Shown: piece by piece, positions 32,025 to 33,171 of the stretch | Layout: every line of letters starts with the position of its first letter | How positions within the stretch are numbered: the first letter of the stretch is position 1 | Sequence record: PQ014731.1 | Strand: one strand, 5' to 3' | From: Escherichia phage VB-EcoM-WM | Length of the DNA: 64,000 bases | Position numbers and translations under genes: made by a program | The notes under the pieces: generated by a model | The model's input: the letters and a program-made list of their open reading frames with translations, nothing else | Told to the model about the DNA's origin: nothing | Databases searched by the model: none

Positions 32025-32336
32025 TACTTGAAAATCCCTGGCACATCAAACATAAGGGGGATTTCTAAAATGGATTTCCTCCTTTTGATATTTTACCTGG
32101 CCGGATATTTTAAAATTCCTAGAAAATCAGAAAATGGATCGAAAACTAAAATGGATTTTTTCAAGACAGGCACGATAAGCTGCGCTGCTCATTCTATCAT
32201 TCGCACCGTACTCCAAATCACCGTTCCAGATTTTCCGCACACACTCTCACCCTTCTACCAGAACTTTCCCAACTTACCTTCAGCCTTTTATGACAATAAG
32301 TTAATTATTATCAGTAAGTTTTGATACATCTCTCTC

Positions 32337-32520
32337 AGTACTCGATCTGTTTTTCATTTCAAAGATTGGATTTTCTGAAAATTTTTCTCGATAAATTTTT
32401 CGGTACTCGATCTGTTTTTCGTTTTCTGAATCAGATTTTCTGGAAATCGTTCCGGCGCTCGACCTGAAATTTTTGGGGACGAAATCGATTTTTCGTTTTC
32501 AGAAATGGATTTTTAAAATT
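32337..32520. repeat. degenerate tandem direct repeats (iteron-like, about 55-64 bp unit)
   Basis: C(A/G)GTACTCGATCTGTTTTTC at 32337 and 32401, degenerate third copy near 32453; recurrent GATTTTCTG(A/G)AAAT. Confidence 0.6.
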
Positions 32521-32624
32521 TCTATATGGGAATATTTTAGGAGGTATTATTTTATATAGAATTGTCACGGTAGGTAATTAGCATGCTAACTAAATTTATG
32601 AAATGCGAAAAGTTATCATTTAGA

Positions 32625-32900
32625 ATTTTGAATGATAATCATTCTCGTTTGCAGAATAACGGGCACCCCCGGTGATTGTCTCCCGGCCCCTACTGCCCCG
32701 GCTTGTTATTATAGTATCACACAGGACAAAGAAAGCAAGAAGTTTTTGCATAAATTTTTAGACGATAATGATAATCGTTCTCATTTCATGCAGCGCCCAT
32801 CTCCGGTGGTTGTCTCCCCCGTCACCGGTGCCTGCCGTCCTTTCGATATGTATATTGTGCCACCTGGCGGGGCCGCTGTCAACACTTTTCAAAAAAAAAA
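32625..32900. repeat. two degenerate direct copies of a GC-rich hairpin-containing element
   Basis: AATGATAATC(A/G)TTCTC and CCGGTG(A/G)TTGTCTCCC shared by both copies; 24-nt core GGGCACCCCCGGTGATTGTCTCCC at 32661..32684. Confidence 0.55.
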
Positions 32901-33171
32901 TTCTAACCTGATGCGCTAACCGCTGCAACCTGGCGGGGCCAGCCTGGTGGGCCTATGCTATAGGATAGGTAACAATTGAAGAGGAGGTACAAAAATGAAA
33001 GGTAATAGGATCCCCCTGGAAAATGTAGCTATTAATAACGCTGAGGCTATCGCCCTGGTTGAAAAGGCTATGGCGGGAGCGTTGGAACATAAAGAAGAGT
33101 ACGAAAAAATGATGGTCAACCTGGCAGGGGCGGCTGGAGAATTCTACCCAAAAAATAATTTTAACTAGTGG

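Follow-up and report, generated by a model that had tools for sequence, protein, structure and literature searches.

The window analysed here is a 64,000-nucleotide (nt) stretch of Escherichia phage VB-EcoM-WM (PQ014731.1), and the element in question is a noncoding island at positions 32025-32994. The island lies within a long rightward block of early and replication genes, where it is flanked by homologues of rV5 ORF200 and ORF196/195. About 1.4 kb around it shows 98.8% identity to Escherichia phage EPFV3, 97% to FV3, and 91% to rV5; the window is therefore assigned to a Vequintavirus, a strictly lytic myophage with a genome of about 136 kb. The polymerase and primase-helicase genes are found about 9 kb upstream of the island, and the replisome of the rV5 type is T7-like (polymerase gp228, primase-helicase gp230; PMC3606486). 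A replication origin was sought by skew analysis in the rV5 genome paper, without success (PMC3606486). The noncoding character of the island, claimed in an earlier note on this DNA, was borne out except for its right edge: the next likely gene begins at 32995 rather than at 33254, and the island consequently ends at 32994. This gene, missed in that note, is an open reading frame (ORF) of 57 amino acids (32995-33168) with a strong GAGGAGG site and a match to phrog_21957. It is present in EPFV3, rV5, and navn and absent or replaced in L003, slur16, and Murica, and other genera carry a small non-homologous gene on the opposite strand at its position.

Relatives were gathered by a sensitive search, which matched 253 records. 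Their loci are labelled L001 (rV5) to L041, where L004 is a Klebsiella phage (OY978796.1), L007 a Shewanella phage, and L008 an Aeromonas phage. Comparisons within the genus refer to an alignment of nine Vequintavirus genomes, and whole-genome motif counts and the ranking of A+T content were made in the complete 136-kb genome that is 98.8% identical. Sixteen GenBank records titled 'Campylobacter phage' (MG0656xx) have about 91% identity to rV5-type coliphages here and are probably mislabelled or contaminant-derived.

The left part of the island is occupied by repeats. Short direct repeats, which we call module A, come first (32059-32165), with two copies of GATATTT (32087 and 32104) and three of AAATGGAT(TT) (32068, 32132, and 32149). 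Module A is near-invariant within the genus apart from the variable spacer that separates the two GATATTT copies, and its motifs are also found in Seunavirus, Mydovirus, and Certrevirus. An unconstrained spacer follows (32166-32327), poorly conserved, with indels of 1 to 2 nt among the nine genomes, and forming part of a spurious ORF (32070-32324). Three iteron-like tandem repeats of 65 to 74 nt then occupy 32328-32520, each with a GTACTCGATC-type core followed by T-rich tracts. These repeats had already been pointed out in the earlier note, and we recovered them at 32328-32374, 32393-32439, and 32467-32513; their periods are 65 and 74 nt and their identities 72-77%, and an 18-mer, GTACTCGATCTGTTTTTC, is exact in two of the three, against 0.06 expected. 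At the equivalent position, at least three repeats with a CTCGATC core are present in L004, L006, L009, L010, L011, and L012, and the Aeromonas phage L008 has a related tandem-repeat core. To the right of the repeats lies an AT-rich spacer (32521-32603; at about 61.6 kb in the 98.8%-identical genome), which ranks 8 of 13564 in A+T content among 120-nt windows.

The right part is composed of palindromic boxes, GC elements, and predicted minus-strand promoters. A composite unit of palindromic box and GC element, of which the earlier note reported the two GC-rich copies, is present twice at a distance of 134-136 nt (32631-32650 with 32664-32684, and 32767-32786 with 32798-32818). The predicted promoter P1(-) (32711-32738; TTGCTT-16-TACTAT(AAT)), read from the sequence and genus-invariant, points leftward into GC element copy 1 (32658-32684, minus strand), whose core in the minus sense is GGAGACAATCACCGG and which lies 38 nt from box 1. 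Likewise, the predicted promoter P2(-) (32854-32882; TTGACA-17-CACAAT with an extended TG), conserved within the genus, points leftward into the diverged GC element copy 2 (32795-32818, minus strand; core GAGACAACCACCGG). The window thus holds two predicted promoter-leader-box units in tandem, the P2 unit and the P1 unit. In other genera, the promoters equivalent to P1 read TTGCAA-17-TATATT. A motif of the type ACCTGGC(G/A)GGG with the Dcm site CCWGG is scattered over this region (32858-32874, 32924-32940, 33115-33131, 40706-40714, 40780-40790, and 42310-42330), and one copy forms the spacer of P2.

By sequence, the palindromes are Fur boxes of operator quality. Box 1 (32628-32647; TTGAATGATAATCATTCTCG), invariant within the genus, agrees with the 19-bp Fur consensus at 15 of 19 positions, and box 2 (32764-32783; GATAATGATAATCGTTCTCA) does so at 17 of 19, the best site in the window. 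A degenerate box 0 (32604-32618; TGCGAAAAGTTATCA) is placed 29 nt upstream of box 1; it has an rV5 equivalent at L001 10704, and its sequence is kept even in the Shewanella phage L007. Genuine Fur-regulated promoters of Escherichia coli K-12 (fepA-fes, fepD-entS, fepB-entC, fhuA, and ryhB) score 13-16 of 19 against the same consensus, and the phage boxes are equivalent to these validated operators. Furthermore, box 1 with its flank has a 16-nt run, ATAATCATTCTCGTTT, in common with the fhuA operator, and the box of the relatives has a 15-nt run, ATAATCATTCTCATT, in common with the ryhB operator. The inverted-repeat form 7-1-7 is found as TGATAAT-C-ATTCTCG and TGATAAT-C-GTTCTCA, with TGAKAAT-N-ATTCTCA as the consensus over the relatives. 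Such sites are rare, as only three in the window reach at least 15 of 19. The third, with 15 matches, is located at 40517-40535, at the start of a small ORF (40515-40649) and about 150 nt upstream of the promoter of GC element copy 3 (described below), and it may be a chance match. Over the whole 136-kb genome, the boxes are confined to the island and to 42.85-43.0 kb, and the GC cores to three places in the island and at 40.7 kb. The second box cluster (42849-42997, with boxes at 42849, 42867, 42965, and 42983) falls in a large noncoding region.

The phage boxes resemble the operators of E. coli (GATAATGATAATCATTATC, or the 7-1-7 motif TGATAATNATTATCA; e.g., fhuA and ryhB) in sequence and in their 7-1-7 form. 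In contrast to them, they belong to a strictly lytic phage, appear as arrays of one to four with a 29-bp phase, and are situated about 55 nt or more downstream of the putative promoters instead of over a -35/-10 pair. No Fur homologue was detectable in Vequintavirinae genomes; therefore, if the boxes are Fur sites, the protein would be that of the host. Binding by host Fur would also explain why the box is conserved in phages of different host orders.

This conservation extends far beyond the genus. Positions 32602-32686 retain 80-90% identity in phages whose surrounding DNA is otherwise unalignable, namely Klebsiella and Proteus Mydovirus, Salmonella and Enterobacter Seunavirus, Cronobacter and Pectobacterium Certrevirus, E. 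coli Phapecoctavirus, and Shewanella and Aeromonas phages. The order of the modules is common to Vequintavirus, Seunavirus, Mydovirus, Certrevirus, and Phapecoctavirus, and partly to the Shewanella and Aeromonas phages. Read rightward along the gene strand, the shared layout runs from short repeats through tandem repeats, an AT-rich spacer, boxes, and the GC element to an opposite-strand sigma-70 promoter. It starts with GATATTT repeats about one helical turn apart, followed by AAATGGWTTTC repeats (AAATGGATTT is among the short repeats) and a variable spacer. Next come at least three tandem repeats of 65-75 nt with a (G)GTNCTCGATC core and A/T tracts, different in sequence in Phapecoctavirus; between genera, the tandem-repeat sequence turns over, as iterons do. 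Each locus has one to four palindromic boxes, and in six loci the distance from one box start to the next is exactly 29 nt. The GC core GGTGWTTGTCTC is always 38 nt from the last box, and 59-64 nt separate the -10 hexamer of the leftward promoter from the first box in all these genera. In the Shewanella (TTGCAA-16-TATAAT) and Aeromonas (TTGCAC-17-TATACT) phages, the box or boxes and the inward promoter are kept, and the leader sequence differs. Within a genus, each element of the layout is near-invariant, and the spacers between them vary. Three points had escaped the earlier note: that the palindromes look like Fur boxes, that predicted promoters lie on the opposite strand, and that distant phages share the element. 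As to a capture from the host, no match was found in the E. coli chromosome. The pattern of box plus flank had a single match among 185,579 species genomes (L041 6231-6251), on a 17-kb contig binned as a Woesearchaeota metagenome-assembled genome, which is almost certainly a mis-binned phage contig.

A partner unit lies 8 kb away. The 24-nt core GGGCACCCCCGGTGATTGTCTCCC occurs exactly at 32661-32684 (plus strand) and 40721-40744 (minus strand), as previously noted, with 0 expected in 100 shuffles, and by eye the identity of the inverted pair reaches 27 nt (32658-32684 versus 40721-40747). GC element copy 3 (40721-40747, plus strand) is therefore an exact 27-nt inverted copy of copy 1. A terminator hairpin with an overlapping predicted promoter (40656-40692, plus strand; TTGCAA-16-TATACT) points rightward into it; the hairpin (40656-40681) bears the -35 hexamer in its loop, and the -10 hexamer and then the GC element follow. 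The same terminator-promoter-GC arrangement, inverted with respect to the main island at a distance of 7-10 kb, was observed in rV5, slur16, CR8, phAPEC8, and Mydovirus, and a box follows the unit of the copy-3 type in CR8 and Mydovirus. The inverted pair marked by the 24-nt match was also found in relatives, including those of other subfamilies, so that its absence from relatives, named in the earlier note as a refutation, does not hold. Within a phage, a variable pentamer matches between the copies (GGGGG in the window and in rV5, GGGCC in slur16), which indicates concerted evolution or a need for matched sequence. Given the arrangement at copy 3, the inverted pair is better explained as two outward-facing predicted promoter-leader units flanking an early-gene block than as a recombination substrate.

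Overall, we describe the island with considerable confidence as a noncoding cis-acting control region that comprises leftward promoters, a GC leader, operator-quality Fur boxes in fixed phase, repeat arrays, and a partner unit 8 kb off. Regarding its function, our best single guess, already raised in the earlier note as an origin-like reading and strengthened by the relatives, is a Fur-gated, transcription-activated replication origin region; this assignment is tentative, and we would place its chances somewhat short of even. P2 and P1, as tandem minus-strand promoters of the host sigma-70 type, would fire leftward, and each would transcribe a G-rich leader of about 60 nt (the GC element) before reaching the operator or operators for host Fur. 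Beyond the operators, the AT-rich spacer, the three tandem repeats, and the short repeats would provide for protein assembly and DNA opening. Replication would then be activated or primed by transcription entering this repeat and AT-rich segment, in the manner of the T7 primary origin, T4 oriF/oriG, and lambda ori, and iron-loaded Fur on the phased boxes would decide on the passage of the transcripts. We infer Fur binding, promoter activity, and a role in replication from an arrangement that is itself directly observed.

A number of features agree with this proposal. Several direct repeats adjoin an AT-rich unwinding segment, and the consensus-type promoters P1(-) and P2(-) are aimed into AT-rich DNA; all genera examined keep this arrangement of repeats, AT-rich DNA, and inward promoters. 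The many classes of phased repeats, the iteron-like turnover of the tandem repeats between genera, the high genome-wide A+T rank of the spacer, and the T7-like replisome speak for an origin as well. Transcribed leftward, the leaders would be rich in G, with 33 G-runs versus 11 C-runs over 14 units, an indirect hint at a lasting RNA-DNA hybrid that could serve as primer. A G-quadruplex was considered and rejected, as the four G-tracts of copy 1 are not conserved in other genera. A general promoter-leader element was also rejected because only three GC cores exist in the whole genome.

Known systems offer partial parallels. In the primary origin of T7, an AT-rich region comes after the tandem promoters phi1.1A/B, and T4 oriF/oriG combine a promoter with an unwinding element and an R-loop primer. 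The island is similar to them in its two tandem predicted promoters aimed into an AT-rich segment, its T7-like replisome (PMC3606486), and its G-rich leaders. Unlike these origins, it has predicted promoters of the host sigma-70 type that run antisense to the surrounding genes, it carries large tandem repeats and Fur-like boxes in addition, and it is a candidate origin predicted from sequence. In lambda ori, four regularly spaced palindromic 19-bp iterons adjoin an AT-rich region, and transcription activates initiation. The island loci likewise appear to have up to four regularly spaced 19-bp palindromes by an AT-rich region, with predicted transcription through them; unlike in lambda, they lie outside an initiator gene, the palindromes match a host regulator rather than an O protein, and the spacing is 29 bp. 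The leader elements HK022 put and lambda nut provide another comparison. As with these, a conserved phage element is found just downstream of promoters and in opposite orientations at two loci. Unlike put and nut, it lacks a conserved two-stem RNA structure (3 pairs by alifold, weak z-scores, and modest covariation of the stem), and it has 3 copies only in a genome with more than 30 promoters (PMC3606486). Finally, the theta origin of ICP1 has been mapped by sequencing coverage, with an internal early origin and a late origin near the pac site (PMC7145576). ICP1 is also a lytic myophage, with polymerase and structural genes related to those of rV5; it differs in that its 45-75 kb region has no Fur-box array, and no sequence homology to the ICP1 fragment was detected. 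The pseudo-ToxI of phiTE (36-nt repeats) was discarded as a counterpart, since its escape locus is at 106.7 kb (PMC3475682) versus 39.6 kb for the homologous island.

Several observations weigh against an origin. No initiator gene was recognized among ten neighbouring proteins (no Pfam domain of that kind, and PHROGs of unknown function only), the island contains no DnaA box, and it has 3 GATC sites versus about 5 expected. The genome-wide GC-skew check suggested with the earlier proposal gave an ambiguous picture: the sign changes track transcription units and not the island. There is a significant local step at the island, where GC skew goes from 0.132 to 0.076 (p = 0.005) and AT skew from 0.061 to 0.142 (p = 0.001) with unchanged gene orientation, but its sign is opposite to that of a bacterial-type bidirectional origin, and it may reflect nothing more than a switch from one gene class to another. 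The locus at 42.8-43.6 kb has the same motif classes, and the island is therefore not unique. By analogy with ryhB and fhuA, a conserved -35/-10 pair overlapping the boxes was sought on both strands, and none was found; therefore, classical promoter occlusion is not the mode, which leaves the Fur boxes a role as roadblocks or architectural sites. In addition, the leaders of several genera are only modestly G-rich, and the literature searched held nothing relevant on an origin of rV5, PVP-SE1, or Vequintavirus, on Fur boxes in lytic phages, or on transcriptomes.

The main rival, which we regard as possible though doubtful, gives the island no part in replication and sees in it a Fur-gated transcriptional boundary or antisense module. 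Such a module would stand between two early-gene blocks of the same orientation: hairpins with T-runs in the tandem repeats would weaken rightward read-through, the leftward P1 and P2 would oppose it by collision or yield antisense RNA, and Fur on the boxes would set the reach of the leftward transcripts, with the copy-3 unit acting likewise where the 8-kb block ends on the right. The hairpin-plus-T-run features are present in the repeats on the plus strand, and strand composition steps at the island while gene orientation stays the same, which fits a transition between gene classes. Strong predicted rightward promoters would restart transcription at 33172 and 33455, copy 3 is placed exactly at a terminator-plus-promoter junction, and outward-facing units flank a gene block of 8-10 kb in several genera. 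However, a simple boundary would not need five phased repeat classes, a fixed 29-nt box spacing, or an iteron-like turnover of repeats. Moreover, the motif classes recur at the region equivalent to a terminal repeat, which points to DNA transactions and not to transcription alone.

It is improbable, in our estimation, that the GC elements are small regulatory or leader RNAs acting in trans or in cis, as the earlier note had proposed in the form of small RNA genes. In its favour, predicted promoters precede every GC element, each of which lies 15-35 nt downstream of one; it loses ground through the weak predicted structure and the lack of an Rfam family. In one version, a plus-strand RNA of copy 1 would pair with the copy-3 leader, with perfect complementarity over 27 nt, and the variable pentamer does change in step in copies 1 and 3, but the two copies are unmatched in CR8 and phAPEC8. 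A 6-bp stem flanking the core pairs in 89.7% of cells, with two pairs altered on both sides (ATAGCG...CGCTAT in phiTE, ATAAC...GTTAT in the window). Nevertheless, its covariation score was exceeded in 16 of 500 shuffles and is attainable through relatedness alone, and its 5' arm overlaps the -10 hexamer of P1 and would lie outside a P1 transcript. Neither do the elements form a consensus structure (3 pairs only by alifold), fold with convincing z-scores (-0.05 to -2.3), or precede a terminator. Against Rfam, no family passed the gathering score, and the matches at E<10 did not exceed chance level.

The relatives contribute one further point in favour of RNA. In those outside Vequintavirus, a GC-rich conserved block of about 95 nt (..CCGGCGATCCACCTTCCRACC..GGTAYGTTAGCCCCGCCTTTTCGCCGTGGGGTGGCG..) lies downstream of a second leftward promoter (L004 3165-3262, L006 3140-3235, L009 2640-2735, and L005 3180-3270), with A-U to G-C covariation (a pair A..T in 8 sequences, G..C in 8), and it looks like a structured RNA. 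The window has no counterpart of the block, whose place is taken by the second unit of box and GC element. In a Mydovirus-like IMG/VR contig (L027 7010-7060), an unrelated insert at the left edge of the block parts it from the GC element. A tRNA was also considered and rejected: one Klebsiella phage record annotates a tRNA-Met under the homologous stretch, and ARAGORN finds none at that locus and none in the island. At the tRNA features of L004 (OY978796.1; 3004-3157, 3624-3699, and 5927-6076), ARAGORN likewise found no tRNA, and the coordinates in that record therefore appear shifted or misplaced.

A packaging (pac) or genome-terminus-related site is very unlikely. The pac site of P1 is repeat-rich DNA with GATC-containing cores, which the repeat-rich noncoding island with its GATC-containing cores resembles. 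The related locus at 42.8-43.6 kb, where six GATATTT motifs as in module A span 42959-43526, occupies the position that in the Mydovirus Klebsiella phage KPP-1 is taken by a 514-bp direct terminal repeat (PMC9862379). That repeat, though, is about 8.4 kb from the main island and just past the copy-3 unit; with the KPP-1 terminus elsewhere, the island is therefore not the packaging end. Vequintavirus genomes are also reported to be circularly permuted (PMC8407724), and records start within 2 kb of the island in about 5 of 253 cases, roughly as by chance. The locus near 43 kb is part of a noncoding region of at least 1.7 kb (window 41452-43900) at the convergent junction of two large transcription units, which corresponds to the 'non-coding' box of the rV5 map. 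Fur-like boxes and a GATATTT cluster that includes GTGATATTTGTGGG, as in module A of other genera, are found in its 41.5-43.6 kb part, and the region may be a packaging or late-origin region.

That the island codes for small proteins, through ORFs 32070-32324 and 32632-32919, is highly improbable. Both ORFs are annotated in some records, and the first, which is rV5 ORF199, is preceded by a Shine-Dalgarno-like AAGGGGGA; the earlier claim that the local ORFs have no ribosome-binding site consequently applies only to the second. Against a coding role, ORF 32070-32324 is interrupted by 1-nt and 2-nt indels in the nine-genome alignment, and the ATG of ORF 32632-32919 is within box 1, with a frame that is not maintained in L003, in L012, or in other genera. 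All codon positions are equally conserved, and the annotations differ from record to record, with depositors placing different ORFs across the island; thus, we see no coding capacity here. Finally, an inversion or other rearrangement of the 8-kb segment driven by the 27-nt inverted pair, a module suggested in the earlier note on account of the exact repeat with its copies 8 kb apart, can practically be set aside, as the left junction is colinear in 111 of 121 relatives and the right one in 114 of 211 with the inverted state in none, the genes between the copies are all on one strand, and no recombinase was found among the neighbours scanned.

Elsewhere in the window, the anaerobic ribonucleotide reductase gene nrdD is in two fragments with a gene for a winged-helix DNA-binding protein (EPFV3 ORF152, window ~60927-61436) between them, which suggests an intron- or intein-associated homing endonuclease.

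Returning to the Fur-gated origin, these results make the island a concrete and easily testable origin candidate for rV5-like phages, which are widely used in typing, biocontrol, and therapy. A broader and more speculative implication, which we consider unlikely as it stands, is that a whole clade of lytic myophages (Vequintavirinae, Phapecoctavirus, and relatives on Enterobacterales, Shewanella, and Aeromonas) would sense host iron status directly, via phased Fur-operator arrays that gate replication or an early switch, with a possible titration of Fur. The putative arrays would separate inward-firing promoters from an AT-rich origin with iterons, and would also occur at the terminal region; with this placement, Fe-Fur would gate the initiation of replication or an early developmental switch. 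If so, phage DNA, with 5-8 strong boxes in each genome, could draw Fur away as it replicates and relieve the repression of host iron uptake, and the extra iron would supply the iron-dependent ribonucleotide reductases of the phage. Neither a link of Fur boxes to the development of virulent phages nor the larger conserved system of the island was described in the literature searched. Since iron is normally scarce in the gut and at infection sites, a Fur-gated switch could affect phage efficacy there. The conservation of predicted Fur boxes across phage genera and host orders would directly tie host iron physiology to the development of virulent phages.

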